DNA from: a virus
Lineage: Duplodnaviria; Heunggongvirae; Uroviricota; Caudoviricetes
Virus record (IMG/VR): IMGVR_UViG_2529292734_000016
Length of the DNA stretch: 28,326 bases
Reading direction: 5' to 3' (one strand)
Shown here: positions 6,343-27,950 of the stretch, piece after piece
Layout: the number at the start of each line of letters is the position of its first letter
How positions within the stretch are numbered: the first letter of the stretch is position 1
Made by a program: the position numbers and the translations under genes
The notes under the pieces: generated by a model
The model's database searches: none
The model's input: only the letters and a program-made list of their open reading frames with translations
Told to the model about the DNA's origin: nothing

Positions 6343-6467
6343 TAATAATTCTCAACTTTCTGAGGGGAGGGGCGGGTCAAATCTCTATGACCTGACGTCT
6401 TCCGGACTGCCCGCCCCATCGTTTTTTTATACCCGCGAAAAATGAAATTTAACCAGGAGTGCCGCAT

Positions 6468-6953: not shown

Positions 6954-6966
6954 AAATCATCGAATC

Positions 6967-8700: not shown

Positions 8701-8858
8701 AATCACTAATTGCTGATGTTATCGGGTTGGCTGGTTTTGGCCTGCTTACGTGCGGGTTTTACCTGCAGTTTGGTATGGCTCCGGCTCTGATGCTGTCCGG
8801 CGGTTTACTGCTGGTGGGCGCACTGGCTATGGCCAGAAGGGGGACGCGTGCTGCTTGA
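8697..8858 (+). CDS. Small hydrophobic protein (53 aa) between terminase and portal
   Basis: Own translation: [53 protein letters not shown]; ATGA overlap with the TerL stop; two hydrophobic segments. Below the ORF-track length cut-off. Confidence 0.35.
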
Positions 8859-10074: not shown

Positions 10075-10669
10075 CCGTGAAATCCGTTGTTACAGCGGTG
10101 AGGTGCGTGCTGAGCGGCATGACGATAACCCTGCGCACATTATCGGTTATGGATCGGTGTTTGACTGTCGTTCTGAGCTGATATTTGGTTCATTCCGCGA
10201 AATCATCCGGCCCGGCGCTTTTGACGATGTGCTTGGTGATGATGTACGCGCACTGTTTAACCACGATCCTAATTTTATTCTTGGGCGTAGTGCAGCAGGC
10301 ACGCTGAATCTTTCAGTTGATGAGCGCGGATTGCGCTATGACATCCAGGCTCCGGAGACACAGACCATTCGTGATCTGGTGCTGGCCCCGATGCAACGTG
10401 GAGATATTAACCAGTCATCTTTTGCTTTCCGTGTCGCCCGTGACGGCGAGGAGTGGTATCAGGATGAGGACGGGGTTGTTATTCGCGAGATAACCCGCTT
10501 TTCCCGTCTGCTGGATGTCAGTCCTGTGACATATCCTGCCTATCAGGAGGCTGACTCGGCTGTTCGCTCCATGAAAGCATGGCAGGAGGCGCGCAACAGC
10601 GGCGCGCTACAGAAAGCCATTAATCAACGTATGGCGCGTGAGCGCGTCCTGACCCTTCTTAACGCGTAA
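10067..10669 (+). CDS. Prohead protease (HK97 family, peptidase U35)
   Basis: Start at ATG 10067 (MNDREIRCYSGEV) overlapping the portal stop; typical prohead-protease sequence and position before the major capsid gene. Confidence 0.85.
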   Translation: MNDREIRCYSGEVRAERHDDNPAHIIGYGSVFDCRSELIFGSFREIIRPGAFDDVLGDDVRALFNHDPNFILGRSAAGTLNLSVDERGLRYDIQAPETQTIRDLVLAPMQRGDINQSSFAFRVARDGEEWYQDEDGVVIREITRFSRLLDVSPVTYPAYQEADSAVRSMKAWQEARNSGALQKAINQRMARERVLTLLNA

Positions 10670-10679
10670 AGGAAACATC

Positions 10680-11909
10680 ATGAAACTGCATGAACTGAAA
10701 CAGAAACGTAATACTATCGCAACTGACATGCGTGCCCTGAATGAAAAAATTGGTGATAACGCATGGACGGAAGAGCAGCGCACTGAGTGGAACAAAGCAA
10801 AATCCGAACTGGAAGCGCTTGATGAACGAATTGCACGCGAAGAAGAACTGCGTCGTCAGGATCAGGCGTACATTGAAAGCAATGAGGAAGAGCAGCGTCA
10901 GAATCTTGATCCGGAAAACAATCCGCAACAGGATGAGAAACGAGCTCAGGTTTTTGATAAGTGGATGCGTCACGGTGCCAGTGAGCTGACATCAGAAGAA
11001 CGAAAGGCGTTGCGTGAACTTCGTGCCCAGGGCGTAGCTCAGGATGAAAAGGGCGGATATACCGTACCAGAAACATTCCTGGCGAAAGTTGTTGAGAAGA
11101 TGAAGTCCTACGGTGGCATCGCCAGTGTGGCGCAGATTCTTACCACTTCTGACGGTCGCACTATGGAGTGGGCAACAGCTGATGGTACTTCCGAAGTTGG
11201 TGTTCTGCTGGGCGAAAATGAAGAAGCCGGTGAAGAAGACACCGATTTCGGTATGGGAAGTCTTGGGGCGCTCAAAATGACATCGAAAATCATTCGTGTG
11301 TCTAATGAGTTGCTGCAGGACAGCGCGATCGATATGGAAGCTTATCTTGCCCGTCGTATTGCTGAACGTATTGGTCGTGGTGAAGCCCGTTATCTGATTC
11401 AGGGAACTGGTGCTGGTACGCCTAAACAACCCAAAGGGCTGGTCGCATCTGTGACCGGCACAACACAGACTGCCGCGGCAAATACGGTGAAGTGGCAGGA
11501 AATTCTGGCTCTGAAACACAGCATTGATCCTGCATATCGTCGCGGGCCGAAATTCCGCCTGGCGTTTAACGATAATACGCTGAAACTGATCAGTGAGATG
11601 GAAGACGGTCAGGGACGCCCTTTATGGTTGCCGGATATTGTTGGTGTGGCACCTGCTTCAGTGTTGAATGTACCGTATGTCATTGATCAGGAAATTGATG
11701 ATATCGGGGCGGGTAAAAAATTCATGTTCTGTGGTGACTTTGATCGCTTCATTATCCGTCGTGTGCGATACATGATTCTTAAACGTCTGGTTGAGCGTTA
11801 CGCGGAATATGATCAGACCGGTTTTCTGGCCTTCCATCGTTTTGACTGTATCCTGGAAGACACCTCTGCCATTAAAGCGCTGGTGGGGAAAGGTAGCGTT
11901 GGTGGTTGA
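10680..11909 (+). CDS. Major capsid protein (HK97 family)
   Basis: 409-aa protein with an N-terminal coiled-coil delta-domain-like region and HK97-fold-like body, following the prohead protease. Confidence 0.9.
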   Translation: MKLHELKQKRNTIATDMRALNEKIGDNAWTEEQRTEWNKAKSELEALDERIAREEELRRQDQAYIESNEEEQRQNLDPENNPQQDEKRAQVFDKWMRHGASELTSEERKALRELRAQGVAQDEKGGYTVPETFLAKVVEKMKSYGGIASVAQILTTSDGRTMEWATADGTSEVGVLLGENEEAGEEDTDFGMGSLGALKMTSKIIRVSNELLQDSAIDMEAYLARRIAERIGRGEARYLIQGTGAGTPKQPKGLVASVTGTTQTAAANTVKWQEILALKHSIDPAYRRGPKFRLAFNDNTLKLISEMEDGQGRPLWLPDIVGVAPASVLNVPYVIDQEIDDIGAGKKFMFCGDFDRFIIRRVRYMILKRLVERYAEYDQTGFLAFHRFDCILEDTSAIKALVGKGSVGG

Positions 11910-11935
11910 TTAGTCTTTTTACGTAATACAGCACG

Positions 11936-11977
11936 CCGCGTAATGCGGTTTTTTTGTGCCCGCGTTCTGGCGGGCAC
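11936..11977 (+). terminator. Tandem hairpins after the major capsid gene (short terminator-like hairpin with a T run, then an 8-bp stem)
   Basis: CCGC-GTAAT-GCGG followed by TTTTTTT, then GTGCCCGC-GTTCTG-GCGGGCAC immediately before the AGGAGG of the next gene. Confidence 0.4.
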
Positions 11978-11987
11978 AGGAGGTTTT

Positions 11988-12311
11988 ATGCTGTTAAAAA
12001 TGGAAGAGATTAAGCTTCAGCTCCGTCTGGATGATGATTTCTCTGATGAAGATGAGTTGCTTGAACTGCTTGGTAAGGCCGCTCAGAGTCGTACGGAAAA
12101 CTTCCTTAACCGTAAGTTGTATGCAACCGCAGATGACAGGCCTGCGGATGATCCTGATGGGCTTGTGATATCTGATGATGTGAAGCTGGCGCTTCTGCTA
12201 CTTGTCAGCCATTTCTACGAAAACCGCTCAACGGTTACAGACGTTGAGAAAATGGAGTTGCCAATGAGTTTTAACTGGTTGGTTGTTCCTTATCGCCTTA
12301 TACCACTATGA
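11988..12311 (+). CDS. Head-tail connector protein (gp6-like)
   Basis: ATG at 11988 with AGGAGG upstream; small acidic protein in the first post-capsid position. Confidence 0.55.
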   Translation: MLLKMEEIKLQLRLDDDFSDEDELLELLGKAAQSRTENFLNRKLYATADDRPADDPDGLVISDDVKLALLLLVSHFYENRSTVTDVEKMELPMSFNWLVVPYRLIPL

Positions 12312-12718
12312 AAATTCGTCAGGCGCAGACCAGCGCAACCTACATTCTGCCGGACCCCGGCGAACTGAATAAACGCGTCCTGATCCGCCAGCGGGTGGAT
12401 ATGCCCGCGGATAACTTTGGCGTGGAGCCTCAATACCCGGTTGCGTTCCGGGCATGGGCGAAGGTTATCCAGACCAGTGCCACCACCTGGCAGGAAACCG
12501 CGCAGACCGGAGACGCCATCACCCATTACATCACCATTCGCTACCGCCGGGGGATCACTGCTGATTATGAGGTGGTCTGTGATGACAGTGTGTACCGGGT
12601 GAAACGTCAGCGCGATCTGAACGGGGCGCGGCGCTTTCTGCTGCTGGAGTGTACGGAACTGGGCGAATTTACGCAGAGTCACGGAGGCAGCAATGGCGAC
12701 TCCCTTTTTTCACGTTGA
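12308..12718 (+). CDS. Head-tail joining / head closure protein
   Basis: ATGA overlap with the upstream gene; size and position typical of HK97 gp7-like head-tail adaptors. Confidence 0.55.
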   Translation: MKIRQAQTSATYILPDPGELNKRVLIRQRVDMPADNFGVEPQYPVAFRAWAKVIQTSATTWQETAQTGDAITHYITIRYRRGITADYEVVCDDSVYRVKRQRDLNGARRFLLLECTELGEFTQSHGGSNGDSLFSR

Positions 12719-13199
12719 TGTTCAGCAGCCCGCGGAGATGCGCTTTAACCGCGCCCGTGTCCGGCGGGCGTTTGTCACGATTGGGCAGCGTCATATGCGT
12801 GATGCCCGTCGGCTGGTGATGCGCCGTGCGCGGTCGGCACCGGGTGAAAACCCCGGTTATCAGACCGGACGCCTGGCTCGTTCGATTGGTTACATGGTGC
12901 CGAGAGCCAGTAAAAAGCGAGCCGGTTTTATGACACGCATTGCCCCTAACCAGCGCAACGGGAAGGGGAACCGGATGATCTCTGGTGACTTCTATCCGGC
13001 GTTTCTGTTTTTTGGTGTCCGGGGAGGAGCAAAACGTCGTCGTAGTCATCATCGTGGTGCATCCGGTGGCAGCGGCTGGCGGCTGGCTCCACGTAATAAC
13101 TTTATGGTGGAAACGCTTGAAAAGAACCGCAGCTGGACACGCTATTTTCTGGCGCGGGAATTGCGTAAATCACTGAAGCCGGAGCGACGACACAGATGA
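12693..13199 (+). CDS. HK97 gp10-like virion morphogenesis / tail completion protein
   Basis: Basic 168-aa protein in the head-tail joining block. Confidence 0.5.
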   Translation: MATPFFHVDVQQPAEMRFNRARVRRAFVTIGQRHMRDARRLVMRRARSAPGENPGYQTGRLARSIGYMVPRASKKRAGFMTRIAPNQRNGKGNRMISGDFYPAFLFFGVRGGAKRRRSHHRGASGGSGWRLAPRNNFMVETLEKNRSWTRYFLARELRKSLKPERRHR

Positions 13200-13756
13200 A
13201 ACTGACGCCTGTTATTGCTGCGCTGCGTGCCCGCTGCCCGTATTTTGAAAACCGGGTGGCAGGCGCGGCACAGTTCAAAAATCTGCCGGAGGTCGGAAAG
13301 CTGAGACTCCCGGCGGCGTATGTGGTACCGGGTGATGACTCTCCGGGAGAAAACAAAAGCCAGACCGACTACTGGCAGGAGCTGAAAGAGGGCTTCTCCG
13401 TGGTTGTCATACTGAGTAACGGGCGTGATGAGCGCGGTCAGTTTGCCTCGTATGATGTGGTGGACGATGTCCGGCAGATGCTCTTTAAGGCTCTGCTGGG
13501 CTGGAACCCGGAAGCGTGCGGTAACCCGATTACCTATGACGGCGGCACGCTGCTGGATCTGAATCGTCATGAGCTGATTTATCAGTTTGATTTTTCGGTC
13601 ATCAGCGAGCTGACCGAAGACGATACCCGCCAGCAGGATGACCTGAACAGTCTGGATGAACTGCGAACGCTGGCGATTGATGTTGATTATCTCGATCCCG
13701 GTAACGGGCCTGACGGCGATATCGAACATCACACCGAAATAACCCTTCCTTCCTGA
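13196..13756 (+). CDS. Tail terminator-like protein (Mu-like tail module)
   Basis: ATGA overlap with the upstream gene; position immediately before the small ORF and sheath gene, as in Mu-like tail clusters. Confidence 0.45.
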   Translation: MKLTPVIAALRARCPYFENRVAGAAQFKNLPEVGKLRLPAAYVVPGDDSPGENKSQTDYWQELKEGFSVVVILSNGRDERGQFASYDVVDDVRQMLFKALLGWNPEACGNPITYDGGTLLDLNRHELIYQFDFSVISELTEDDTRQQDDLNSLDELRTLAIDVDYLDPGNGPDGDIEHHTEITLPS

Positions 13757-13764
13757 GAATCTTC

Positions 13765-13935
13765 ATGTTTGTCAAACCTGTTAAAGGGCGGTCAGTTCCT
13801 GACCCTGCCCGCGGCGACCTTTTGCCCGCCGAAGGGCGAAATGTTGACGAGAACAACTACTGGCTGCGCCGTGAAGCAGCGGGTGATATCCGGCGCGTGA
13901 ATAAAAAGGTGAATACCGATGACGATGAGCTTTAA
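13765..13935 (+). CDS. Small protein (56 aa) upstream of the sheath gene, DUF2635-like by position
   Basis: Own translation: MFVKPVKGRSVPDPARGDLLPAEGRNVDENNYWLRREAAGDIRRVNKKVNTDDDEL; overlaps the sheath start. Below the ORF-track length cut-off. Confidence 0.35.
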   Translation: MFVKPVKGRSVPDPARGDLLPAEGRNVDENNYWLRREAAGDIRRVNKKVNTDDDEL

Positions 13936-15415
13936 CACCATTCCGTCGAATACGCTGGTTCCGATTTTTTATGCGGAAATGGATAACCAGGCGGCGAATA
14001 CTGCACAGGATAGCGGAGCATCGCTGCTGATTGGTCATGCCAATAACGGTGCAGAGATTGTTGCCAACAGTCTGGTGCTGATGCCATCGGCAGACTATGC
14101 ACGCCAGATTTGTGGTGCGGGAAGTCAGCTGGCGCGTATGGTCGAGGCTTATCGCCAGACCGACCCGTTTGGTGAGCTGTATGTGATTGCCGTTCCGGAA
14201 GCCACAGGCGCGGCGGCAACGGTTACGCTGACGGTGACCGGGGAAGCAACCGAAAGCGGCACGGTGAATGTCTATGTGGGACGTACCCGCGTGCAGGCTC
14301 CGGTGACCAACGGCGATAACGTCACGACGATTGCCAGCAGTATCAAAGATGCCATCAATGCCGTTCCGGCCCTGCCGTTTACGGCTTCATCTTCGGCAGG
14401 TGTGGTCACACTGACCGCGCGTCATAAGGGGCTTTGCGGGAATGAAATTCCTGTCAGCCTCAATTACTACGGCTTTGGTGGGGGCGAAGTGCTGCCAGCG
14501 GGCGTACAGATTGCCGTGGCGACGGGTACCGCCGGAACGGGTGCTCCGGTTCTCACCGGCGCGGTGGCTGCAATGGCGGATGAGCCGTTTGATTATATCG
14601 GCCTGCCGTTCAACGACACGGCCTCCGTTAACACGCTGGTGACCGAGATGAACGATACCAGCGGTCGCTGGAGCTATGCGCGTCAGCTGTATGGTCATGT
14701 GTATACGGCAAAGATCGGCACGCTGTCAGAACTGGTGACCGCAGGTGACCAGTTTAACCAGCAGCACATTACCCTGGCGGGGTACGAAAAAGAGACCCAG
14801 ACGCCTGCCGACGAACTGGCGGCAAGCCGTACCGCCCGCGCAGCGGTGTTTATTCGCAACGATCCGGCACGTCCCACGCAGACCGGTGAGCTGGTGGGTA
14901 TGCTGCCTGCGCCGAAGGGGAAACGGTTCACGATGACCGAACAACAGACCCTGCTGTCTCATGGCGTGGCAACGGCGTATGTCGAAAGCGGGGTACTGCG
15001 CATTCAGCGTGATGTCACCACGTACAGGAAAAACGCTTACGGGGTTGCGGATAACAGCTACCTCGACAGTGAGACACTGCATACCAGCGCGTATGTACTG
15101 CGCAAACTGAAATCCGTCATTACCAGTAAGTACGGGCGTCACAAGCTTGCCAGTGACGGTACCCGCTTTGGTCCCGGTCAGGCGATTGTCACCCCGGCGG
15201 TGATCAAAGGGGAACTGCTGGCAACCTACCGTCAGCTTGAGCGTGCGGGGATCGTGGAAAACTACGAACTGTTTAAGCAGTACCTGGTTGTGGAGCGTGA
15301 TGCCAGCGATCCGAACCGCCTGAACACGCTGTTCCCGCCTGACTATGTTAACCAGTTGCGTGTCTTTGCCGTGGTTAACCAGTTCCGTCTTCAGTATTCA
15401 GAGGAGTCTGCATAA
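13919..15415 (+). CDS. Tail sheath protein (Mu gpL-like)
   Basis: 498-aa protein followed by tube, chaperone and tape-measure genes; AAGGTG 7 nt upstream of the ATG. Confidence 0.85.
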   Translation: MTMSFNTIPSNTLVPIFYAEMDNQAANTAQDSGASLLIGHANNGAEIVANSLVLMPSADYARQICGAGSQLARMVEAYRQTDPFGELYVIAVPEATGAAATVTLTVTGEATESGTVNVYVGRTRVQAPVTNGDNVTTIASSIKDAINAVPALPFTASSSAGVVTLTARHKGLCGNEIPVSLNYYGFGGGEVLPAGVQIAVATGTAGTGAPVLTGAVAAMADEPFDYIGLPFNDTASVNTLVTEMNDTSGRWSYARQLYGHVYTAKIGTLSELVTAGDQFNQQHITLAGYEKETQTPADELAASRTARAAVFIRNDPARPTQTGELVGMLPAPKGKRFTMTEQQTLLSHGVATAYVESGVLRIQRDVTTYRKNAYGVADNSYLDSETLHTSAYVLRKLKSVITSKYGRHKLASDGTRFGPGQAIVTPAVIKGELLATYRQLERAGIVENYELFKQYLVVERDASDPNRLNTLFPPDYVNQLRVFAVVNQFRLQYSEESA

Positions 15416-15771
15416 TGGCCCGTATCGGGGGAACCTGTTATTTCAAAATTGACGGTCAACAGCTATCGCTGACCGGCGGCATTGAGGTGCCCATGAACAG
15501 GACGGTCAATGATGACATCATCGGCCTGGACGGTTCAGTGGACCGCAAGGAAACTCACCGTGCGCCTTATGTCAAAGGGACCTTCAAGGTGCCGAAGAAT
15601 TTTCCGGTGAGCAAAATCACCTCGTCTGATGAGATGACCATCACTGCCGAGCTGGCGAACGGTCAGGTCTATGTATTGTCGTCCGCCTGGCTGCACGGCG
15701 AAGCGAACCATAATGCCGAAGAAGGCACGGTTGATCTTGAGTTCCACGGTGAAGAAGGGGATTACCAGTAA
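15415..15771 (+). CDS. Tail tube protein (Mu gpM-like)
   Basis: 118-aa protein directly after the sheath gene, with a TAATG stop/start overlap. Confidence 0.8.
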   Translation: MARIGGTCYFKIDGQQLSLTGGIEVPMNRTVNDDIIGLDGSVDRKETHRAPYVKGTFKVPKNFPVSKITSSDEMTITAELANGQVYVLSSAWLHGEANHNAEEGTVDLEFHGEEGDYQ

Positions 15772-16040
15772 TGAAAGAGCTTGAGTTAAAGAAACCGATT
15801 ATCGCTCATGGTGAGACACTCTCCGTACTGGAGTTTGATGAGCCCACCGGGAAGGATGTCCGCGAGCTGGGGTATCCCTACCAGATGAATCAGGATGAGT
15901 CAGTCAAACTTCTGGCGCATGTGGTGTCGAAATACATTGTGCGGCTGGCGAAAGTGCCGCAAAGCTCTGTCGACCAGATGTCTCCGGCAGACCTGAATGC
16001 AGCGGCGTGGCTTGTGGCTGGTTTTTTCCTCCAGGCCTGA
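15771..16040 (+). CDS. Tail assembly chaperone, short form
   Basis: Small acidic protein between tube and tape measure; contains the slippery site near its 3' end. Confidence 0.7.
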   Translation: MKELELKKPIIAHGETLSVLEFDEPTGKDVRELGYPYQMNQDESVKLLAHVVSKYIVRLAKVPQSSVDQMSPADLNAAAWLVAGFFLQA

Positions 16041-16189
16041 CGGCTGAATACCTCACTGATCGCTTCTTTGACTGCGCCAGCTACTGGCGCATTAATCCTT
16101 TCGAATTGCTGAATATGCCGATCAGTGAAATTCCCTTACTGGTCAGTCAGGCAAACAGGATAGAGCAGGAGAAACGCACACATGGCTGA
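15771..16189 (+). CDS. Tail assembly chaperone, predicted -1 frameshift extended form
   Basis: The -1 frame after the slippery heptamer is open to 16189 and matches the 16007..16189 ORF from FFPPGLTAEYL onward. Confidence 0.5.
16022..16028 (+). promoter_or_regulatory. Programmed -1 ribosomal frameshift slippery heptamer T_TTT_TTC
   Basis: Zero-frame codons are ttt (16023-25) and ttc (16026-28), preceded by t at 16022. Confidence 0.55.
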
Positions 16190-18014
16190 ATTTGAGCTTA
16201 AGGCGTTGATCACCGGTGTCGACAGGCTTTCTCCCGCGCTGTCGAAAATGCAAAAGAAAATCCGGGGATTTAAACGCCAGGCGGAAGAAGCGTCACAGGG
16301 TGGGCTGGCGCTTGGTGGCGGACTGGCAGCGGGTCTGACGCTTTCCCTGAAATCTTATGCCGATCAGGAAAACGCCGCCACCGGGCTGAAAGTCGCCATG
16401 ATGGATGCGAATGGCGAGGTTGGAAAGAGCTTTCAGGACATCAATAAACTGGCTATTGGCCTGGGTAACCAGCTACCCGGTACAACGGCTGATTTCCAGA
16501 ACATGATGCAGATGCTGGTGCGTCAGGGGATCCCGGCAGAAAACATTCTGGGTGGTGTGGGTAAAGCAACAGCTTATCTTGCGGTACAACTGAAAAAAAC
16601 ACCGGAAGCGGCTGCTGAGTTTGCTGCAAAGATGCAGGATGCTACCGGAACGGCGTCAGAAGACATGATGGGGCTGTTCGACACTATCCAGAAGGCGTTT
16701 TATCTGGGCGTTGACGATACCAACATGTTGTCCTTCTTCACTAAAACCAGCTCTGTTCTGAAGATGGTGAACAAGGATGGTCTTCAGGCTGCACAGAGCC
16801 TTGCCCCCATCAGCGTCATGATGGATCAGATGGGGATGAACGGGGAGTCGGCAGGTAATGCCCTGCGAAAAGTTATCCAGTCCGGATTAAGCGTTAAGAA
16901 AATCAGGGACGTTAATAAAGTTATGGCCCGCCAGAAACTCGGGGTACAGCTCGATTTTACTGACGGCAAAGGAAGTTTTGGCGGTCTTGATAACATGTTC
17001 AGGCAACTGGCAAAGCTGCGAAAACTGACCGACGTTAAGCGAACAGGTGTACTTAAGGCAATATTTGGTGATGATGCCGAAACCCTTCAGGTGGTCAATG
17101 CACTAATCGATAAAGGAAAGGATGGCTACGATCAGATCCAGCAGAAGATGAATAAACAGGCCAGCCTGAATAAACGTGTTCAGGCACAGCTTGGTACGCT
17201 GTCCAACCTGTGGGAGGCAATGACAGGGACCGCAACTAACGGCCTTGCGGCTATTGGCGGCGCATTTTCTGGTGACGCTAAAAATATCACACAATGGCTG
17301 GGGGAGTTGGGGGAGAAATTCACGAAGTTTGCGGATGAAAATCCCCGGGTTATTCGCGGCGTCGTCGGGCTTGCTGCCGGTCTTGCGATTCTGAAACTGG
17401 GATTGATGGGCGTGGGCAGTGCCATCAGTATTGTCAGCAGGATTATGTCGATGACGCCGATTGGCATGATTGCGACGGCGATTGCTCTGGCTGCGGGATT
17501 AATTATCACTAACTGGGATGTTGTCGGACCTTATTTCAAGAAGCTCTGGGAAACCATTGGTCCTTATTTTGAGGCAGGTTGGGAACTTCTGAAGAAGGTT
17601 TTTGCCTGGTCGCCGCTTGGGATGGTGATCAATAACTGGGGACCGGTTGTTAAGTGGTTTCAGGATATGTGGGATAAGCTGAAGCCGATTATTGAATGGT
17701 TTACCGACAGTTCCGGTGACACGGTCGATGCCATTAACTCGGCGCAGTGGGGCGCGGGTGCTTATGATGCTTATGGGACGGGAATACCGCCACGGGGATA
17801 CACTCCTTATCCGGTAGTGGATCCGGCTCAGGCAAACAACGCCTCCGATGCCACAGGCTCGAATCCCTTCATGATTAACAAAGCTTCTGTGCCAAAAGTT
17901 GATGGTGAGATCAAGGTATCTTTTGTGAATTCGCCTCCGGGTATGCGGGTTATGGAAACGCGATCCAGCGGTTTTGATGTCAGCCATGATGTTGGCTATA
18001 CGCGGTTCAGGTAG
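16182..18014 (+). CDS. Tail tape measure protein
   Basis: 610-aa protein with a Gly/Ala-rich hydrophobic segment, located after the chaperone pair. Confidence 0.85.
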   Translation: MAEFELKALITGVDRLSPALSKMQKKIRGFKRQAEEASQGGLALGGGLAAGLTLSLKSYADQENAATGLKVAMMDANGEVGKSFQDINKLAIGLGNQLPGTTADFQNMMQMLVRQGIPAENILGGVGKATAYLAVQLKKTPEAAAEFAAKMQDATGTASEDMMGLFDTIQKAFYLGVDDTNMLSFFTKTSSVLKMVNKDGLQAAQSLAPISVMMDQMGMNGESAGNALRKVIQSGLSVKKIRDVNKVMARQKLGVQLDFTDGKGSFGGLDNMFRQLAKLRKLTDVKRTGVLKAIFGDDAETLQVVNALIDKGKDGYDQIQQKMNKQASLNKRVQAQLGTLSNLWEAMTGTATNGLAAIGGAFSGDAKNITQWLGELGEKFTKFADENPRVIRGVVGLAAGLAILKLGLMGVGSAISIVSRIMSMTPIGMIATAIALAAGLIITNWDVVGPYFKKLWETIGPYFEAGWELLKKVFAWSPLGMVINNWGPVVKWFQDMWDKLKPIIEWFTDSSGDTVDAINSAQWGAGAYDAYGTGIPPRGYTPYPVVDPAQANNASDATGSNPFMINKASVPKVDGEIKVSFVNSPPGMRVMETRSSGFDVSHDVGYTRFR

Positions 18015-18113
18015 TGTACAAAATGATTAATGTGTTTTTGTCTGGCATAATTTGGGTTTTCAGCTTTAAGTAGTTAATATAATCATTCCTTACAAATGAT
18101 TGAAGGGATGATT

Positions 18114-18608
18114 ATGCGTATCTTTGTTTTTTTTATATCTGCACTTTTATCTTTTAACTTGGCCGCGGAGGAGTGTAAGTTCAGCTTTAATGAGTCAGAA
18201 TTAATCTCTTCTATAGGTATTGCACCAGTTAAGCAAGAGATAATAAAGGATGAAGGAATAACTAAGCGGCAATATGAATTCAGAAGAGAATTATCTTCTG
18301 AAGAAATGCTTAGTGATGACGCTGATGAAAAATATGAGCCGCAGTTTTATATATCTGTTTATAATCCATCATGCCCACAAAAGGTTATTGTTTGGTTTTT
18401 CAAAGACAATAAAAACACAATGGATTTAAGTAATGAGGTCCTTGCTGGTAGAGCGTTCAAGTATTTAACTGGTGTTAATGAAAGTATTTTTGAAAATAAA
18501 ATGAAAAAGTTTTTAAAGGTACAGTCATTTGAATCTTTTGATGAAAGGACAGATTCTAAATTTATAAAGAGTGGTGATATTTATTCCATTGATGTTCAAC
18601 TCAGATAG
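18114..18608 (+). CDS. Secreted hypothetical protein in an AT-rich moron-like cassette
   Basis: ATG at 18114 with GAAGGGA upstream; Sec-type signal peptide (MRIFVFFISALLSFNLA/AEEC); visibly AT-rich, Lys/Glu/Asn-rich coding region unlike the flanking tail genes. Confidence 0.55.
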   Translation: MRIFVFFISALLSFNLAAEECKFSFNESELISSIGIAPVKQEIIKDEGITKRQYEFRRELSSEEMLSDDADEKYEPQFYISVYNPSCPQKVIVWFFKDNKNTMDLSNEVLAGRAFKYLTGVNESIFENKMKKFLKVQSFESFDERTDSKFIKSGDIYSIDVQLR

Positions 18609-18627
18609 TAATTAAAAATATTAGGTT

Positions 18628-18685
18628 CCCGCCACATCTTCTGCGATGTAAATAACTGACAAAGCAGATTTGGCGGGTTTTTTGT
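18628..18685 (+). terminator. Putative terminator after the secreted-protein cassette
   Basis: CCCGCC ... GGCGGG stem with a long structured loop, followed by TTTTTTT. Confidence 0.35.
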
Positions 18686-18698
18686 ATCCGGAGTTTAT

Positions 18699-20027
18699 AT
18701 GACGTGGAAAGACAGGCTTCAGGATGCGTCATTTCGCGGCGTACCGTTTAAGGTTGAAGAAGAAAGTGCGGGAACCGGTCGCCGTGTGGAAACACATGAA
18801 TACCCGAACCGCGACAAGCCCTATACCGAAGATCTGGGAAAAGTCACTTTCCGCCCGTCCATCACAGCTTATGTGGTGGGAGATGACTGCTTTGACCAGC
18901 GCGATCGCCTGATTGAAGCGCTGAATAAACCCGGTCCCGGCACGCTTGTCCACCCGACATATGGTGAGCTGAAAGTCTGTGTTGACGGGGAAGTTCGGGT
19001 CAGCACATCGAAGAGTGAAGGGCGTATTGTCCGCTTTGACCTGAAGTTTGTCGAAGCAGGAGAACTCTCTTACCCCACATCAGGTGCGGCGACGGCGCAG
19101 ACGCTGATGTCATCCTGTTCTGCACTGGATGACTGCATCAGTGACAGCTTCAGCGGTTTCAGTATCGATGGTGTGGCGGATTTCGTGCAGAACGACGTTA
19201 TCGGTAATGCCAGCATAATGCTGGGGTATGTTTCTGATGCGATGAAAGTGGTGGATTCTGCCGTATCGGATGCCGCCAGGCTGTTGCAGGGGGATATCTC
19301 GGTACTTCTGCCGCCGCCATCGTCAGGCAAAAATTTCGTTGAGCAGGTGCAGAAAATGTGGCGTACCGGGAAACGCCTTTATGGTAACGCCAGCGACCTG
19401 GTCACCATGATCAAAACGCTTTCCGGTGTCAGCCTCGGCAGCGATCTGCAACCGCGCGGCGTCTGGAAAACGGACAGTAAAACCACCGCCACGGCGACGC
19501 AGCAGCGTAACGTGGTTGCCAGCACCCTTCGTACGACCGCAATCAGCGAAGCGGCGTATGCCGTCACCCGATTGCCTGCGCCAACAACTTCCGCGGTGAT
19601 GCAGAATTCCGCAGTGGGGCAGGCAACAACACCTGCGCAGAGCACTGGCTGGCCTTCCGTCACGCATCCGGCACTGAACAATGCACCGGCGGTGAAAAAC
19701 ACAGTTGACCTGCCGACGTGGGAAGAACTGACTGACATTCGCGACACACTGAATACGGCAATTGATAAGGAGTTGTCCCGTACAACCAGTGATGCGCTGT
19801 TTCTGGCGCTGCGCCGGGTGAAAGCAGATCTGAATGCGGATATCAACACGCGCCTTGAACAGTCTGCACGGATCATTCAGCGCACGCCGGATGAGGTTTT
19901 ACCCGCGCTGGTGCTGGCGGCGACCTGGTTTGATAACGCGGCGCGTGATGCGGACATTATCCGGCGTAATGCCATTACGCATCCCGGCTTTGTGCCGGTG
20001 ATCCCTCTGAAGGTGCCAGTGCAATGA
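18699..20027 (+). CDS. DNA circulation protein (Mu gpN-like)
   Basis: N-terminal WKDRLQDASFRGVPF motif and position after the tape measure. Confidence 0.75.
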   Translation: MTWKDRLQDASFRGVPFKVEEESAGTGRRVETHEYPNRDKPYTEDLGKVTFRPSITAYVVGDDCFDQRDRLIEALNKPGPGTLVHPTYGELKVCVDGEVRVSTSKSEGRIVRFDLKFVEAGELSYPTSGAATAQTLMSSCSALDDCISDSFSGFSIDGVADFVQNDVIGNASIMLGYVSDAMKVVDSAVSDAARLLQGDISVLLPPPSSGKNFVEQVQKMWRTGKRLYGNASDLVTMIKTLSGVSLGSDLQPRGVWKTDSKTTATATQQRNVVASTLRTTAISEAAYAVTRLPAPTTSAVMQNSAVGQATTPAQSTGWPSVTHPALNNAPAVKNTVDLPTWEELTDIRDTLNTAIDKELSRTTSDALFLALRRVKADLNADINTRLEQSARIIQRTPDEVLPALVLAATWFDNAARDADIIRRNAITHPGFVPVIPLKVPVQ

Positions 20028-21103
20028 ACGACAATGTCACGCTACGGGTAAATGGCCGGGAGTGGAATGGCTGGACATCGGTGCGCATCGGTGCCGGTAT
20101 TGAACGGCTGGCGCGGGATTTCAGTGTGGAGATCACTCGCCAGTGGCCGGGAGATGAGGGTATCACCACGCTTCAGCCGCGCATTAAAAACGGTTCAAAA
20201 GTGGAGGTGCTGATTGGTGATGAGCTGGTGATCACCGGCTGGGTGGAGGCGACGCCCGTTCGTTACGATGCCCGTTCGGTCAGCACCGGTATTGCCGGAC
20301 GCAGTCTGACCGCTGACCTGATTGACTGTGCAGCCGAACCGACACAGTTTAACGGACGATCGCTGGTACAGATAGCGCAGGCGCTTGCTGCGCCTTTCGG
20401 CATTGAGGTGGTGAACAACGGTGCGCCGTCGGGTGTTATTCCTGACGTCCAGCCCGATCACGGCGAAACGGTGATTGAGGTGATCAACAAAATACTCGGT
20501 CAGCAGCAGGCACTGGCTTACGACGACCCGCACGGCAGGCTGGTGATTGGCGGTATTGGCTCAACGCGGGCACATACCGCGCTGGTACTCGGGGAAAACA
20601 TCCTTTCCTGCGATACGGAGAAGAGTATCCGGGAGCGGTTTTCTGTTTACCAGGTGGCGGGGCAGCGTGCCGGAAACGACGATGATTTCGGTGAGGCCAC
20701 CACCACCGCGCTGCGGGCCCGCACAGAGGACGCATTTATTGCCCGTTACCGTCCGATGTATATCAGGCAGACAGGGCAGGCCACGGGGGCAGGCTGTATT
20801 GCGCGTGCTGACTTTGAAGCCCGACAACGGGCGGCGCGGACGGATGAAACCACCTATGTGGTGCAGGGCTGGCGACAGGGTAACGGTACGCTGTGGCAGC
20901 CCAACCAGCGGGTGATTGTCTTCGATCCGGTCTGTGGTTTCGACAATACCGAACTGCTTGTTTCGGAAGTCACGTTTACTCAGGACCAGAACGGCACCCT
21001 GACGGAAATCCGTGTCGGCCCACCAGATGCTTATCTGCCTGAACCCGAAGCCCCCGGCGCGCGGAAAAAGAAAAAAGCCAGAGTACAGGAGGACCCGTTC
21101 TGA
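20024..21103 (+). CDS. Baseplate hub / tail protein (Mu gpP-like)
   Basis: 359-aa protein in the conserved Mu-like order, with ATGA overlap to the upstream gene. Confidence 0.75.
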   Translation: MNDNVTLRVNGREWNGWTSVRIGAGIERLARDFSVEITRQWPGDEGITTLQPRIKNGSKVEVLIGDELVITGWVEATPVRYDARSVSTGIAGRSLTADLIDCAAEPTQFNGRSLVQIAQALAAPFGIEVVNNGAPSGVIPDVQPDHGETVIEVINKILGQQQALAYDDPHGRLVIGGIGSTRAHTALVLGENILSCDTEKSIRERFSVYQVAGQRAGNDDDFGEATTTALRARTEDAFIARYRPMYIRQTGQATGAGCIARADFEARQRAARTDETTYVVQGWRQGNGTLWQPNQRVIVFDPVCGFDNTELLVSEVTFTQDQNGTLTEIRVGPPDAYLPEPEAPGARKKKKARVQEDPF

Positions 21104-21651
21104 TGAGGACGATTGAAGCCATGCAGCGACAACTCCTCGGCCTGATTGGGCGGGCAGTGGTGAAAAGCATCAGTGCCGCCACGAAATGTCAGACCGTGGA
21201 TGTGTCTCTGATTGCCGGTGAACCCAAAGCCGGGGTTGAACATCTTGAACCCTACGGTTTTACCTCAAGGGCAAACAGCGGTGCGGAAGCGGTGGTGTTG
21301 TTTCCGGATGGCGACCGTTCTCATGCGGTGGTTGTTACGGTGTCGGACCGGCGCTACCGCCTGAAAGGGCTGCAGACGGGTGAGGTGGCTGTCTATGACG
21401 ATCAGGGGCAGTCCGTGACGCTGACCCGGGAGGGGATCGTGGTGGACGGTGCAGGTAAAACGATCACGTTTCGCAATGCACCTGAAGCACGTTTTGAAAT
21501 GGACCTGGAAGTGACAGGACAGGTGAAAGACCTGTGCGACTCCGGCGGCACTACCATGTCAGCGATGCGGCTTGCCTATAACGGGCATCGTCACAGAGAG
21601 AACGGTCAGGGCAGTAACACCGACAAACCTGATAAAGCGATGGAGGCATGA
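21103..21651 (+). CDS. Baseplate assembly protein V / spike (Mu gp45-like)
   Basis: 182-aa protein in the conserved Mu-like baseplate position. Confidence 0.7.
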   Translation: MRTIEAMQRQLLGLIGRAVVKSISAATKCQTVDVSLIAGEPKAGVEHLEPYGFTSRANSGAEAVVLFPDGDRSHAVVVTVSDRRYRLKGLQTGEVAVYDDQGQSVTLTREGIVVDGAGKTITFRNAPEARFEMDLEVTGQVKDLCDSGGTTMSAMRLAYNGHRHRENGQGSNTDKPDKAMEA

Positions 21652-22076
21652 TGGAACTGTGGCTGACGGTGAACGGTAAACGCACCTGCGCCAGCGCACC
21701 GCTGGATCCGCTGATCCGCGCCGTGGTGATTTCCCTGTTTACCTGGCGGCGGGCGGAGCCTGATGACAACGCCGACGTCCCGATGGGATGGTGGGGGGAT
21801 ACCTGGCCTGCGGTACAGAATGACCGTTACGGCTCCCGGCTGTGGCTGCTTCAGCGCAGCAAACTGACCAATCAGCTGGTGCAGACGGTAAGGGGGTATA
21901 TCCGCGAATGCCTGCAATGGATGATTGATGACGGTGTGGTGTCCCGTATTGATCTGGATATCCGCCGCACCGGGATTAATGAACTGGGTAACAGTATCAC
22001 TCTCTGGCGTCGTGACGGACCGGTAATGATTTCTTTTGATGATCTGTGGAGTGCGATAACGCATGGCGGACAGTGA
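21651..22076 (+). CDS. Baseplate wedge protein (Mu gp46-like / GPW-gp25 family)
   Basis: Start chosen at ATG 21651 (GGAGG 4 nt upstream); conserved position before the baseplate J gene. Confidence 0.7.
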   Translation: MELWLTVNGKRTCASAPLDPLIRAVVISLFTWRRAEPDDNADVPMGWWGDTWPAVQNDRYGSRLWLLQRSKLTNQLVQTVRGYIRECLQWMIDDGVVSRIDLDIRRTGINELGNSITLWRRDGPVMISFDDLWSAITHGGQ

Positions 22077-23121
22077 ATTTCAGCGTCCGACGCTGGCAGA
22101 AAATATCAGTATGCTCCGTAACGATTTATTCGCCAGGCTGGACGTCAGCGATACGCTCCGGCGCATGGATGAAGACGTGCGGGCAAAGGTGTATGCGGCG
22201 GCGCTGCATACGGTTTACGGGTACATCGATTATCTGGCAATGAATATGCTGCCTGACCTGTGCGATGAGTCCTGGCTGGCGCGACATGCTGCGATGAAAC
22301 GGTGTCCGCGCAAGGGGGCCACGGCTGCCAGCGGGTATATGCGTTGGGAAGGTGTCAGCGATGGCCTGAAGGTGACCGCCGGGAGTGTTATTCAGCGCGA
22401 TGACCTGGTTCAGTACACGGCAACTGCCGATGCAACCAGCTCCGGTGGTGTCCTGCGCGTGCCGATCGCCTGCTCAAGTGCAGGAGCGGTCGGTAACGCT
22501 GACGACGGTACGTCATTAATCCTGGTCACGCCGGTTAATGGTCTGCCGTCTTCCGGCGTGGCAGATACCCTGACAGGCGGATTTGATACTGAAGAGCTGG
22601 AAACGTGGCGCGCCCGCGTCATTGAGCGGTATTACTGGACGCCGCAGGGCGGGGCTGACGGGGACTATGTCGTCTGGGCTAAAGAAGTGCCCGGCATTAC
22701 CCGCGCATGGACATACCGTCACTGGATGGGAACGGGAACTGTCGGTGTGATGATTGCCGGCAGTGACCTGATTAATCCCATTCCGGAAGAATCAACGGAA
22801 ACGGCGGCAAGACAACACATTGAGCCACTGGCCCCGGTGGCAGGCTCTGATTTGTATGTGTTCAGGCCGGTGGCGCATACGGTGGATTTTCATATCCGCG
22901 TGACGCCGGACACACCGGAAATACGGGCTGCCATCACCGCCGAGTTGCGTTCGTTCCTGCTGCGTGATGGTTATCCGCAGGGAGAACTGAAGGTGTCACG
23001 TATCAGTGAAGCGATTTCCGGTGCGAACGGGGAATACAGCCATCAGTTGCTTGCACCGGTGGACAATATCTCCATTGCGAAAAACGAACTGGCGGTTCTG
23101 GGGACGATTTCATGGACGTGA
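22063..23121 (+). CDS. Baseplate J-like protein (Mu gp47-like)
   Basis: 352-aa protein in the baseplate J position. Confidence 0.8.
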
Positions 23122-23696
23122 CAAACGATGATTACATCCGTCTGTTGTCGGCACTGCTGCCGCCCGGTCCGGCGTGGTCAGCCAGCGATCCGGCGATTGC
23201 AGGTGCGGCACCGTCATTAACCCGTGTTCATCAGCGTGCGGATGCCCTGATGCGGGAGCTGGATCCGCGCACCACCACCGAACTGATAAACCGCTGGGAG
23301 CGTCTGTGCGGCCTGCCGGATGAATGTATTCCCGCAGGGACACAGACCCTTCGCCAGCGTCAGCAACGGCTGGATGCGAAGGTTAACCTGGCGGGCGGCA
23401 TCAACGAGGATTTTTATCTTGCACAGCTTGCTGCCCTGGGCAGACCAGATGCCACCATCACGCGATACGACAAAAGCACCTTCACCTGCTCATCGGCCTG
23501 TACTGACGCGGTGAATGCGCCGGAATGGCGGTATTACTGGCAGGTCAACATGCCAGCTGCCACCAACACCACCTGGATGACATGTGGTGATCCCTGTGAT
23601 TCCGCACTGCGTATCTGGGGCGACACCGTTGTCGAGTGTGTGCTTAACAAACTCTGCCCTTCGCATACCTACGTAATTTTTAAATATCCGGAGTAA
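23112..23696 (+). CDS. Tail protein, Mu gp48-like (DUF2313 / YmfQ-like)
   Basis: 194-aa protein following baseplate J, with the Cys-rich C-terminal region typical of this family. Confidence 0.75.
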
Positions 23697-23699
23697 TCC

Positions 23700-24170
23700 A
23701 TGCATCGTATAGACACGAAAACCGCGCAGAAGGATAAGTTCGGCGCGGGTAAGAACGGTTTTACCCGTGGTAACCCCCAGACCGGCACGCCTGCCACCGA
23801 TCTGGATGATGACTACTTTGACATGTTGCAGGAAGAACTCTGCAGCGTGGTGGAGGCATCCGGTGCCAGCCTGGAGAAGGGGCGGCACGATCAGCTTCTT
23901 ACCGCGCTTCGTGCGCTGCTGTTAAGCCGCAAGAATCCGTTTGGCGATATCAAATCGGATGGCACTGTGCAAACGGCTCTCGAAAACCTGGGAATGACAG
24001 ACATTCTGAATGATAAACAGGATAAAAATGATAATCTGACATCATTGTCGAGCTTAACAGGAATACCGGATGGGCTGGCATTTTTTACAGGTGCCAGAAC
24101 AATGGATATGACAGCGCTGACTCAAAATGGCAGGGAAATTTTAAGTAAAAAAACGTATCGGAAACTCTAA
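23700..24170 (+). CDS. Tail fibre protein, N-terminal baseplate-attachment part (short, possibly truncated by recombination)
   Basis: N-terminus [26 protein letters not shown] resembles side-tail-fibre N-termini; composition turns AT-rich at about 23990 and the ORF stops after 156 aa. Confidence 0.55.
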
Positions 24171-25049: not shown

Positions 25050-25416
25050 CTTCTGCAGTAATGGATGAAATACCGCGAGTATAATGTTTTTATGCATATG
25101 AACCGTTTAAACCAGAGGAATCCTGACGAAATTGGTTATTGCGCCGAGAGTTGTCGGAGGGGGTGATATAGGTTATCTAATGGAGTAATCATTTTAACAT
25201 TAATCAGTTTCCCCATGACATCCTCTAAACCCTATATAAACGATTTCCTGCTACTGGCATTCAAACGAAATAATTTGAAAGCAATTTAAAGAGTTATTTG
25301 TCTAATGTTGGAAGCCGCAGCCACGTCGTATGCAAGAACGTGCTGCGGCTGGCTGGCGAACTTTCGATAGTGCGAGTATTGAATGATTTCCAGCCGTTAC
25401 CGATTTTACGTGTTAA

Positions 25417-25665
25417 TTAGTGAACAAACCACTCGTCAGCAGATTCCCAGGTATCTTTCAGAGTCTCCTGAACAAAAGTTTTTGCAGAATCCTTATCTGC
25501 GGTGCGTGTAACAGAAAGGCTATCGTTGCTGGTGGCTTTTACGATCACCTCTACATCGTCATAACGTTTACTGATGCGTCGGGTTAATTCTTCCTTTAAC
25601 GCATCCACAGCACCGGTTGGCATTTTAGTCATTTTTTCTTTGGCTATGCAGATTTCAATACGCAT
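25417..25665 (-). CDS. DinI-like DNA-damage-inducible protein (prophage-encoded)
   Basis: 82-aa product starting MRIE and ending [10 protein letters not shown], a DinI-family signature; GAGGGA RBS; LexA boxes in its upstream region. Confidence 0.8.
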
Positions 25666-25678
25666 AAAAGTCCCTCTA

Positions 25679-25698
25679 TACTGTGTTTGTATACAGTA
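25679..25698 (-). promoter_or_regulatory. LexA box (SOS operator) 1: TACTGTGTTTGTATACAGTA
   Basis: Exact CTGT-N8-ACAG with consensus flanks, 14 bp upstream of the DinI-like start codon. Confidence 0.7.
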
Positions 25699-25706
25699 TT
25701 ATTTTT

Positions 25707-25726
25707 AACTGTATGGATAAACAGTG
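25707..25726 (-). promoter_or_regulatory. LexA box 2: AACTGTATGGATAAACAGTG
   Basis: Second CTGT-N8-ACAG palindrome 8 bp from box 1, abutting the integrase stop codon. Confidence 0.6.
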
Positions 25727-26824
25727 TCAAGAGGTCTTATTTCTGCTCCTTTGGAGCTCTTCAAAACGATTATGTAAAGATTTCGGATACAGTTCGGTAT
25801 ATACCTGCCATAGCACGTTTAATGAACGATGCCCTGTAACCTGGGCGACTTCCTCAATACTAAAACCAGCCTCAAATAAGCGACTTGCCCCTTCTCTACG
25901 CAAATCATGGTATCGCAGATCCTTAATACCTAATTTGCTTCTTACCCTCTGAAATCCCGCAGTAACAGAAGTGCTGTTATATGGAAAAATGAATTCCGAT
26001 TTTTGGGGCTGTCGTTGGACGATATCCCAGGCTTCCCCAAGCAAGGCTACTTTCATGTGGTTGCCTTCCTTTTTGCGTGGGTCTTTCCTGTCTCTTACGA
26101 GTATAGATTTTTGTTCCTGGTCGAGATCTTCCCATCGTAACCGGCATACTTCTCCGATTCGCATACAGGACCACACAGAAAATTTGAGGATATCAACGAA
26201 CGGAATTTTTGAGCATTTATGAGTAGATCGTTGTTGAAGGCCTTCAATGAGCAGGTCCAGTTCATCAGATGCTGGTCTACGATTACGACGGTTTGATTTA
26301 CCAATCAAACCAAGTTTAAGTAGATATGGACGAGCACTTTTCGCCGGGTTTGATGTGTAATTAATTCCGTATACAGGTTTGGCCGCATCCAGAACACTGC
26401 CAAGATAACTAACATCGTGGCTGACTGTTGCTGGACCTGCGCCAGCGTTGTTTCTTAGCCTGCAATGTTCAATTACGTCATTTTCTGTCAGTTCAGATAG
26501 TTTGATCGCGGATATGTCACTATCCATAAGCAGTTCCAGCACATATCTTTTAGTACGGCCTGCTTTACCTCCGGCATTTGGGTCATTTAAATATTTGTGT
26601 AGTAAGTCACGGACTGTAAGTCCGTCAACTGCATTTGATGATGGAATGCCATATAGATCTAATTCCATCACTTTCTGTGTGCCCCATGTTTTGGCATGAG
26701 CATGTTTAGGGAATGTTTTGCTTTCCCTGTAAGTGATAACACCTTTTTCTTTGATAATCACATTACAGCGATAGCGTGGTGTGCCATCGGATTTTAGTCG
26801 TTTCTCTATGTTATAGTACGCCAT
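25727..26824 (-). CDS. Tyrosine-type site-specific integrase
   Basis: 365-aa protein whose C-terminal region has the spaced Arg/His/Tyr catalytic pattern (RIGE...HDLRR...Y) of phage integrases; divergent from and adjacent to dusA. Confidence 0.9.
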   Translation of the reverse strand: MAYYNIEKRLKSDGTPRYRCNVIIKEKGVITYRESKTFPKHAHAKTWGTQKVMELDLYGIPSSNAVDGLTVRDLLHKYLNDPNAGGKAGRTKRYVLELLMDSDISAIKLSELTENDVIEHCRLRNNAGAGPATVSHDVSYLGSVLDAAKPVYGINYTSNPAKSARPYLLKLGLIGKSNRRNRRPASDELDLLIEGLQQRSTHKCSKIPFVDILKFSVWSCMRIGEVCRLRWEDLDQEQKSILVRDRKDPRKKEGNHMKVALLGEAWDIVQRQPQKSEFIFPYNSTSVTAGFQRVRSKLGIKDLRYHDLRREGASRLFEAGFSIEEVAQVTGHRSLNVLWQVYTELYPKSLHNRFEELQRSRNKTS

Positions 26825-26912
26825 TACACGACCTCGTTATTTCGGGTTCCCATAAAACGTGGGAACCTGTGCGGGAACCTAACGCGAGAAAAATAGCCTG
26901 AAATGTTCAAAA

Positions 26913-27950
26913 ATGCACGATAATCATGAAACACAAAAAATTAATCAAACCAGCGTGATGCCTGAAAAAACTGGTGTTTACTGGAATTCTCGGTTTAGCA
27001 TTGCTCCTATGCTCGACTGGACGGACAGACATTGCCGCTATTTCTTGCGTCTGCTTTCCCGCAATACGTTGCTGTATACCGAAATGGTGACCACAGGGGC
27101 GATTATTCACGGTAAAGGTGATTACCTGGCGTACAGTGAAGAAGAACATCCGGTAGCGTTGCAACTCGGCGGTAGCGATCCGGCGGCGCTGGCACAGTGT
27201 GCGAAGCTGGCAGAAGCGCGTGGATATGATGAGATCAACCTGAATGTCGGCTGCCCGTCTGACCGGGTGCAGAACGGCATGTTTGGTGCGTGTCTGATGG
27301 GTAATGCGCAGCTGGTTGCCGACTGTGTGAAAGCGATGCGCGATGTGGTGTCGATTCCAGTGACGGTGAAAACGCGTATTGGCATCGATGACCAGGACAG
27401 CTATGAATTTCTCTGCGATTTCATCAACACTGTTTCCGGCAAAGGCGAGTGTGAGATGTTTATCATCCACGCACGTAAAGCCTGGCTTTCGGGGTTAAGC
27501 CCGAAAGAAAACCGTGAAATCCCGCCGCTCGATTATCCGCGTGTGTATCAACTGAAGCGTGACTTTCCGCATCTGACAATGTCGATTAACGGTGGTATCA
27601 AGTCGCTGGAAGAGGCCAAAGCACACCTGCAACATATGGATGGCGTGATGGTCGGGCGCGAGGCGTATCAGAATCCGGGTATTCTGGCGGCGGTAGACCG
27701 GGAGATCTTTGGTTCCTCGGATACCGATGCCGATCCGGTGGCGGTAGTGCGCGCCATGTATCCGTACATTGAGCGTGAACTCAGCCAGGGGACGTATCTC
27801 GGCCATATTACCCGGCATATGCTGGGTTTGTTCCAGGGTATTCCTGGCGCGCGGCAGTGGCGGCGTTATTTAAGTGAAAATGCCCATAAAGCGGGTGCTG
27901 ACATTAACGTGCTGGAACACGCGCTCAAACTGGTGGCGGATAAGCGTTAA
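26913..27950 (+). CDS. dusA: tRNA-dihydrouridine synthase A
   Basis: TIM-barrel Dus motifs ([28 protein letters not shown]); followed by pspG as in enterobacterial chromosomes. The true start may be the internal ATG at 26958 (MPEKTG). Confidence 0.85.

Follow-up and report, generated by a model that had tools for sequence, protein, structure and literature searches.

The locus described here raises two questions: where exactly does phage DNA give way to host DNA at the tRNA-modification gene dusA of a lysogen, and what reads the GGGAACC repeats that lie between the phage integrase gene and dusA? The DNA is a stretch of 28,326 nucleotides (IMG/VR record IMGVR_UViG_2529292734_000016), referred to below as the window. 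A tyrosine integrase of 365 aa is encoded on the minus strand (int, 25727-26824; PF00589 at E = 7.8e-21) and a DusA of 345 aa on the plus strand (26913-27950; PF01207 at E = 7.8e-105). The two genes diverge from a spacer of 88 bp (26825-26912), as an earlier note on this sequence had described. The best explanation overall, to which we assign a probability of roughly three in four, is a prophage integrated in dusA whose GGGAACC copies serve as arm-type sites of its integrase (Int).

The structural genes of the window are 97.7% identical to those of Shigella phage SfV, and pspG is found 3′ of dusA with the K-12 gene order retained. Judged from its sequence, the source prophage is an SfV-like temperate myovirus, and the window ends with its attR junction inside E. 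coli dusA. Prophage DNA occupies positions 1-27008, corresponding to the right-hand ~27 kb of the element, and attL, rdfN and the immunity region lie outside the window. The layout of the whole prophage was taken from the E. coli lysogen BS15R-A, in which the int-dusA-pspG stretch is 99.7% identical to that of the window. No complete E. coli genome in the collection contained more than 88% of window positions 1-25000 (98.2% identity), and for this reason the attL used here is that of BS15R-A and not that of the window's own strain. The same int-dusA junction was present in 733 of 5426 complete E. coli genomes (~13.5%).

Five sequences were aligned around the point of insertion: the empty site of K-12 (attB), the left junction of BS15R-A (attL), the attP regions of mEp460 and Lys8385Vzw, which are isolated phages with the same integrase as the window, and the window itself (attR). 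Around the core, attB reads GCACCAATGCTCGACTGGACGG and attP reads GCTCCTATGCTCGATAGGATGT. The attL sequence combines the left half of attB with the right half of attP, attR combines the left half of attP with the right half of attB, and the attP of free phage mEp460 equals the left half of attR joined to the right half of attL. The block identical in attB, attP, attL and attR is ATGCTCGA at 27009-27016 (plus strand), which must contain the region of strand exchange, and the last phage-specific base is the T at 27008. The core thereby covers nt 97-104 of dusA, in codons 33-35. It had been predicted to lie in the first part of the gene; it does so, 9 bp past the end coordinate of the earlier note.

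The phage attP core is CCTATGCTCGATAGG and the host site is CCAATGCTCGACTGG, about 100 nt into dusA. In attP the core is centred in a perfect inverted repeat, CCTAT-GCTCG-ATAGG, and core-type half-sites that flank the overlap region as an inverted repeat are the usual arrangement. The core of the window agrees with the published 7-base core of phage 1720a-02 and with its attB in C. rodentium, TCCAGTCGAGCATGGGAGC, which is the reverse complement of the site found here (PMC6328086).

Alignment of dusA with that of a prophage-free strain and a search for attL at the far prophage end, both suggested in the earlier note, bore out its proposal that the prophage sits at the 5′ end of dusA and replaces it. 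Identity to K-12 breaks at 27009: beginning with the core and including the host-derived remainder of the gene (27017-27950, plus strand), the window matches K-12 at 98.8% identity up to its last base, and the 96 nt that precede the core (26913-27008, plus strand), a phage-supplied surrogate for codons 1-32, are 81% identical to the native K-12 sequence. Further upstream, similarity to K-12 is at chance level. In BS15R-A the displaced native 5′ end of dusA was found at the far end of the prophage, about 39.6 kb to the left, where it is annotated as 'tRNA-dihydrouridine synthase, missing C-terminus'. Semi-conserved direct repeats in the ...APM(L/M)DWTD... region of dusA mark the two junctions, with the native 5′ end at the far one (attL from BS15R-A). 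The attP of mEp460 and the match of Int and P arm to phage 1720a-02 point the same way. Junction, core and surrogate 5′ end are direct observations, and we regard the integration picture that they compose, of a phage inside dusA with this core and this surrogate, as close to certain.

The surrogate is in frame with the host part of dusA, giving an intact Dus protein of 345 aa. That dusA is intact and in frame after integration follows from the phage carrying diverged codons 1-32 and an upstream region beside its core. Such an in-frame replacement 5′ end, as read from the sequence, is a feature of dusA-specific elements, and the DusA of the lysogen is, on the same reading, chimeric but presumably functional. 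A sigma-70 consensus scan of 25300-27300 gave no promoter in the int/dusA spacer on either strand. CTGAAA-15 nt-GATAAT (26898-26924), picked out by eye, was rejected as a promoter for its too short spacer. On the minus strand, TTGATT-17-GATTAT scores 8 of 12 by eye. By analogy with the Vibrio element IMEVchUSA3, phage DNA must supply the promoter of dusA, and any placing of the promoters of the two genes is inferred.

In the integrase, R222, H332 and Y342 are invariant among 60 homologues, and H306 and R309 nearly so; the R-H-R-H tetrad and the nucleophilic Tyr are conserved, and int adjoins the 5′ end of dusA. The protein shares 99.2% identity with the Int of phage 1720a-02 and 98.6% with that of mEp460, which carries the annotation INT_Rci cd00796. 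Its distant matches are annotated as shufflon-specific recombinases, and it is related in sequence to the published dusA-associated integrases (DAIs), whose nearest characterised relative is Rci. In the relatives BS15R-A, mEp460 and EKP1 a PrtN-family gene lies across attP from int, as expected of DAI elements with an RdfN. By these sequence characters the Int of the window is a member of the DAI family.

Int was modelled with AlphaFold from an alignment of 60 sequences (pLDDT 86). In the model, three beta-strands (2-10, 16-26 and 29-38) and one helix (41-58) form a predicted N-terminal unit, followed by a helical core-binding domain and then the catalytic domain. The unit, residues 1-58, is encoded at 26651-26824 (minus strand) and is the predicted arm-binding domain; modelled by itself it reached a pLDDT of 90.5. 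In Foldseek the full Int model aligned to full-length lambda Int (1z1g, 5j0n; about 360 columns) and to Tn1549 Int, and the N-terminal domain by itself gave no significant match. A Pfam arm-binding family was not found in residues 1-70, and the sole match in a Pfam scan of residues 1-192 at E <= 10 was PF24624 Int_N (E = 0.032, residues 72-165).

Three copies of the repeat lie in the spacer, on the P arm, and are located here by their distance from the first base of the core. Repeat a is TGGGAACC on the minus strand (26845-26852, -164), just upstream of the Shine-Dalgarno sequence of int. Repeats b, TGGGAACC (26860-26867, -149), and c, CGGGAACC (26872-26879, -137), are both on the plus strand and were identified by repeat search and from relatives. 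The repeat search recovered, as the earlier note had listed them, the inverted pair GGTTCCCA (26845-26852) and TGGGAACC (26860-26867), which are 100% complementary with 7 nt between the arms, and the third GGGAACC at 26873-26879. It also gave a direct pair of GGGAACCT at 26861-26868 and 26873-26880 with a spacing of 12 nt. The window contains 7 copies of GGGAACC where 3.4 are expected, and some 7-mer with three copies inside 40 bp somewhere in 28 kb is seen in about 21% of dinucleotide shuffles. The cluster by itself is thus modestly unusual, and the case for its being real comes from comparison with relatives.

In the attP of mEp460 the motif occurs five times: at -164 (inverted), at -149 and -137 (direct, on the int-proximal P arm), and at +50 (TGGGAGCC) and +61 (TGGGAACC) on the P′ arm. 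The Yersinia phage YeP1 and EKP1, with integrases of 67-68% identity, carry copies of GGGGTGCT and TGGTGTAC, respectively, at the five positions of mEp460, to within 1 bp. Morganella phage IME1369_02 has GGTGTCC on both arms, and Pseudoalteromonas C5a and Shewanella M16-3 have motifs of their own on both sides. As in lambda-type integrases, the motif is distinct from the core and is repeated on both arms of attP. Relatives also have a candidate IHF site, located between core and P′ pair. A possible sixth copy inside int at codons 59-61 (Gly-Val-Pro; about -366) was dropped from the map; it is present in YeP1, EKP1 and C5a, is inconsistent within classes and is absent from the window.

A survey of the P arm covered 45 sequences, the window and 44 chromosomal loci of other species. 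The direct pair is kept in 39 of them, spaced by 12 nt in 37 and by 11 nt in 2, and in 20 of these 39 the inverted copy is kept at the same place. The 7-mers fell into the classes GGGGTGC (21), GGTGTAC (6), GGGAACC (5) and GGTGTCC (4), with the others as single cases. An inverted-plus-two-direct layout, TTACACCAT...ATGGTGTAAttTTGGTGTAAT, is also seen beside the int start in the A. baumannii D1279779 sequence of Supplementary Fig. S4C in PMC4482086. The five-site layout and its conservation are directly observed, and since the positions are conserved to the base pair and the motif is replaced in concert on both arms, the comparison of sequences indicates a site that is read by an element-encoded protein.

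Int is the likely reader, and the GGGAACC repeats are considered good candidates for lambda-type arm-type sites. Residue 30 of Int is I, Y, H and R in the GGGAACC, GGGGTGC, GGTGTAC and GGTGTCC classes, respectively; residues 5, 7 and 23 likewise sort by motif class, and the class residues are located on the three predicted strands of the N-domain. This correlation, together with the predicted fold of the domain, is as expected if the N-domain binds the arms and the repeats are arm-type sites. The covariation could also reflect common descent, because physical linkage ties the repeats to both int and rdfN.

The other element-encoded protein to be weighed is the recombination directionality factor (RDF) RdfN of the PrtN family. 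It is the proven RDF of dusA-specific elements (PMC8409611), and its gene is the neighbour of int on the other side of attP. RDFs often bind direct repeats arranged in tandem on the P arm, and RdfN differs between motif classes (47-54% identity), so that it could account for class-specific motifs as well. Int diverges between the classes about as much as RdfN, and a comparison of divergence was uninformative for separating the two since both diverge in parallel. That the repeats bind RdfN and not Int is nevertheless judged unlikely. In lambda and the other systems that have been characterised, a single arm holds all RDF sites, whereas the motif studied here stands on both, and its distances from the core resemble those in lambda. 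Binding by RdfN would also leave the predicted extra N-terminal domain of Int, which is of a DNA-binding type, without a target, and the class-specific residues sit on the predicted beta-strands of Int. We infer that Int rather than RdfN is the binder.

The repeats might act chiefly as an operator that controls the divergent promoters of int and dusA through a regulator from phage or host, with no part in synapsis. Their location and layout suggest this: they lie in the spacer that is the sole non-coding DNA separating the divergent genes, their inverted copy adjoins the ribosome-binding site of int, and the inverted-plus-direct arrangement is operator-like. Yet the spacer is without a consensus promoter, two more copies stand on the P′ arm, where their distance from the core is fixed, and identical repeats accompany the int module in mEp460, Stx phage 1720a-02 and the SfV-like prophage, which otherwise differ. 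The immunity region of BS15R-A has two GGGAACC copies, and both lie outside the interval between the repressor and cro-like genes. An operator as the main function is accordingly held to be quite improbable, and the arm-site explanation leaves room for Int binding to influence regulation as a side-effect.

That the repeats are a functionless product of chance or a neutral relic would be in keeping with the 21% of shuffled 28-kb windows that hold a three-copy 7-mer cluster within 40 bp. This has very little probability left, for the positions are conserved to the base pair although the motif differs between lineages at 3-4 of 8 positions, and both arms change together. A native, uninterrupted dusA beside an integrase from an element with att sites elsewhere, which the earlier note had named as the refuting case, found no supporting evidence and is excluded for practical purposes by the break of K-12 identity at 27009, the displaced native 5′ end at the attL of BS15R-A and the matching attP of free phage.

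The following course of events is proposed. The DAI-family Int recombined the phage attP core with the host site in dusA, with strand exchange within ATGCTCGA (27009-27016). Exchange within TGCTCGA gives two products: attL, in which the native 5′ end of dusA adjoins the P′ arm, and attR, in which the P arm and the surrogate 5′ end lead into the host body of dusA. After integration the N-terminus of dusA is phage-supplied, as are, by the analogy drawn above, its expression signals, and the native 5′ end is stranded at attL. With the repeats taken as arm-type sites of Int, the N-terminal beta3-alpha domain of Int would bind them while its C-terminal domains hold the core, as in lambda Int, and this bridging of arm and core would build an integrative intasome on attP that captures naked attB in dusA. 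A host bending protein probably helps in the assembly, because the candidate IHF site lies between the core and P′1 in relatives. Excision would additionally require RdfN, the PrtN-type factor encoded across attP. Int bound at the P-arm sites would probably damp the transcription of int, and perhaps of dusA; repression of int is probable because the P-arm sites lie between its Shine-Dalgarno sequence and any promoter upstream.

A wider reading, which is put forward tentatively and may well prove wrong, is that dusA integrases form naturally orthogonal specificity classes. Beta-sheet residues of the N-domain, notably residue 30, would read a class-specific 7-8-mer at five fixed attP positions, and occupancy of the three spacer sites by Int would couple autoregulation of int to expression of the repaired dusA. 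The coupling is suggested by the three sites filling the 88-bp divergent spacer. The regulatory part is speculative, as the spacer scan gave no sigma-70-like promoter.

For annotation, the analysis provides an exact boundary, with phage DNA ending at 27008-27016, and identifies dusA as chimeric. The dusA-prophage phenomenon is already known, down to a near-identical module that has been studied experimentally. The present work adds the position of the core (27009-27016), shows how much of dusA comes from the phage (26913-27008) and maps the probable arm-type sites by comparison with relatives; of these, the five-site map of repeats, whose motifs vary by lineage, is the one that goes beyond published descriptions. 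Arm sites for dusA integrases were not mentioned in the dusA-integrase literature searched, and neither the repeat motif, nor an arm-site map, nor a coupling of Int to dusA expression was found there. The map opens no long-standing question. If binding is confirmed, it would supply the missing attP anatomy of a widespread integrase family, as well as several related and possibly orthogonal pairs of integrase and arm site for engineering.

Lambda Int is heterobivalent, has the arm-type sites P1, P2 and P′1-3 and requires an RDF for excision. The system in the window resembles that of lambda in its predicted three-domain integrase and in having 7-8-mers repeated on each attP arm, at distances of about -165 to -135 and +50 to +70 from the core. 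The two integrases share about 17% identity in structural alignment, and their arm motifs are different. Unlike in lambda, the target lies inside a protein-coding gene that is repaired by the phage, and int immediately adjoins the P arm and has a leader that passes through the candidate arm sites.

In the dusA-specific elements of Vibrio, among them IMEVchUSA3, int and the gene for a PrtN-type RDF (RdfN) lie on opposite sides of attP (Durand et al. 2021, PMC8409611). With a lacZ fusion, IMEVchUSA3 was shown to provide DusA with a promoter and with an N-terminus that is altered but of unchanged length (PMC8409611). It has the target dusA in common with the prophage of the window. The Vibrio elements are mobilisable islands under the control of AcaCD of IncC plasmids, whereas the window is part of a complete tailed prophage.

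The DAI family and the dusA-specific genomic islands, with att repeats of 21 bp, were defined by Farrugia et al. 2015 (PMC4482086), and E. coli lysogens are among the entries of their Table S1. A tyrosine recombinase adjoining and divergent from dusA, insertion at the 5′ end, semi-conserved att repeats and a replacement 5′ end characterise the family and are found in the window as well, which shows no essential difference from it. Arm-type sites were left unanalysed in that study (PMC4482086).

The closest known system is the Stx2dact phage 1720a-02 (KF030445), to which the window is base-for-base identical from the start codon of int through the core, the repeats and the surrogate included. 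The P′ arm of 1720a-02 has the same TGGGAGCC-tat-TGGGAACC pair, joined to a remnant of C. rodentium dusA. Integration 100 bp into dusA with a 7-base core was reported for this phage, and attL, attR, attB and the attP regenerated on induction were sequenced, so that excision as a circle with native dusA restored is documented for this phage, whose module is the same (Balasubramanian et al., PMC6328086). The authors noted the phage-encoded in-frame 5′ end of dusA and assigned the Int to the family of Farrugia et al.; the GGGAACC repeats were not described (PMC6328086). The remainder of 1720a-02 is that of a Stx2-converting lambdoid phage, whereas the structural genes of the window are SfV-like. 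The same int-attP cassette is therefore common to Stx-converting, lambdoid and SfV-like phages, and since the same module is found in mEp460, 1720a-02 and the SfV-like prophage, the dusA module is a mobile cassette among phages that otherwise differ.

The region holding the structural and lysis genes (window 6400-24000) showed 97.7% identity to the Shigella serotype-converting phage SfV. In contrast to these SfV-like genes, the integration module was that of phage mEp460 and of the Stx phage 1720a-02. The window is an example of phages exchanging modules, here at their int-attP cassette.

The annotated ATG of dusA falls within the string AAATGCACG(A/G)(A/T)AAT at window 26910-26924. The string is kept 96 nt ahead of the core in the window, in mEp460, in Yersinia phage YeP1, in Elizabethkingia phage EKP1 and in most of the chromosomal dusA-integrase loci from many genera (L005-L048), and it is also found in the native dusA of K-12. 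The codons located 3′ of it vary freely, unlike the string itself. Instead of encoding amino acids, the string may serve as a DNA signal, for instance as a -10 element (GATAAT); the start of DusA would then be Met16 (26958).

On the other side of int, a DinI-like gene (PF06183) is located at 25417-25665 on the minus strand. Two LexA-box-like sites, TACTGTGTTTGTATACAGTA at window 25679-25698 and AACTGTATGGATAAACAGTG at 25707-25726, were detected between this gene and the int stop codon, and they overlap a promoter-like TTGACA-18-AAAAAT. The DinI-like gene adjoining int is probably under SOS regulation.

Within int itself, at approximately -366 from the core, YeP1, EKP1 and Pseudoalteromonas C5a have a further copy of the arm motif particular to their lineage (GGGGTGCC, GGTGTACC), formed by the Gly-Val-Pro codons 59-61. 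This copy is inconsistent within motif classes, and at the same codons of the window int the arm motif is absent, the sequence there being GGCATTCC. The copy could be a sixth site, or else a coincidence. Elsewhere in the window, CCAAAAT occurs three times in 31 nt (1022-1052) at the 5′ start of the antitermination-protein gene, the sole three-copy 7-mer cluster besides that of GGGAACC.

Two of the deposited relatives call for comment on their records. The recorded host of EKP1 (OM284015) belongs to the Bacteroidota. Its dusA integrase is of the enterobacterial type (67% identical), its surrogate dusA 5′ end is enterobacterial-looking, and it also carries a PrtN gene and a DinI gene; on its gene content the host assignment looks doubtful. 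The attP of Escherichia phage Lys8385Vzw (MT225100) contains two copies of the core (ATGCTCGAATGCTCGA) in the deposited 'circular' genome, against one in mEp460, and the doubling looks like an artefact of prophage-end joining.

On the P′ arm, which lies beyond the window, mEp460, YeP1 and EKP1, representing three lineages, share a near-match to the IHF consensus WATCAAnnnnTTR at +27 to +40 from the core. This candidate IHF site separates the core from the first of the P′ repeats and is analogous to H′ of phage lambda.
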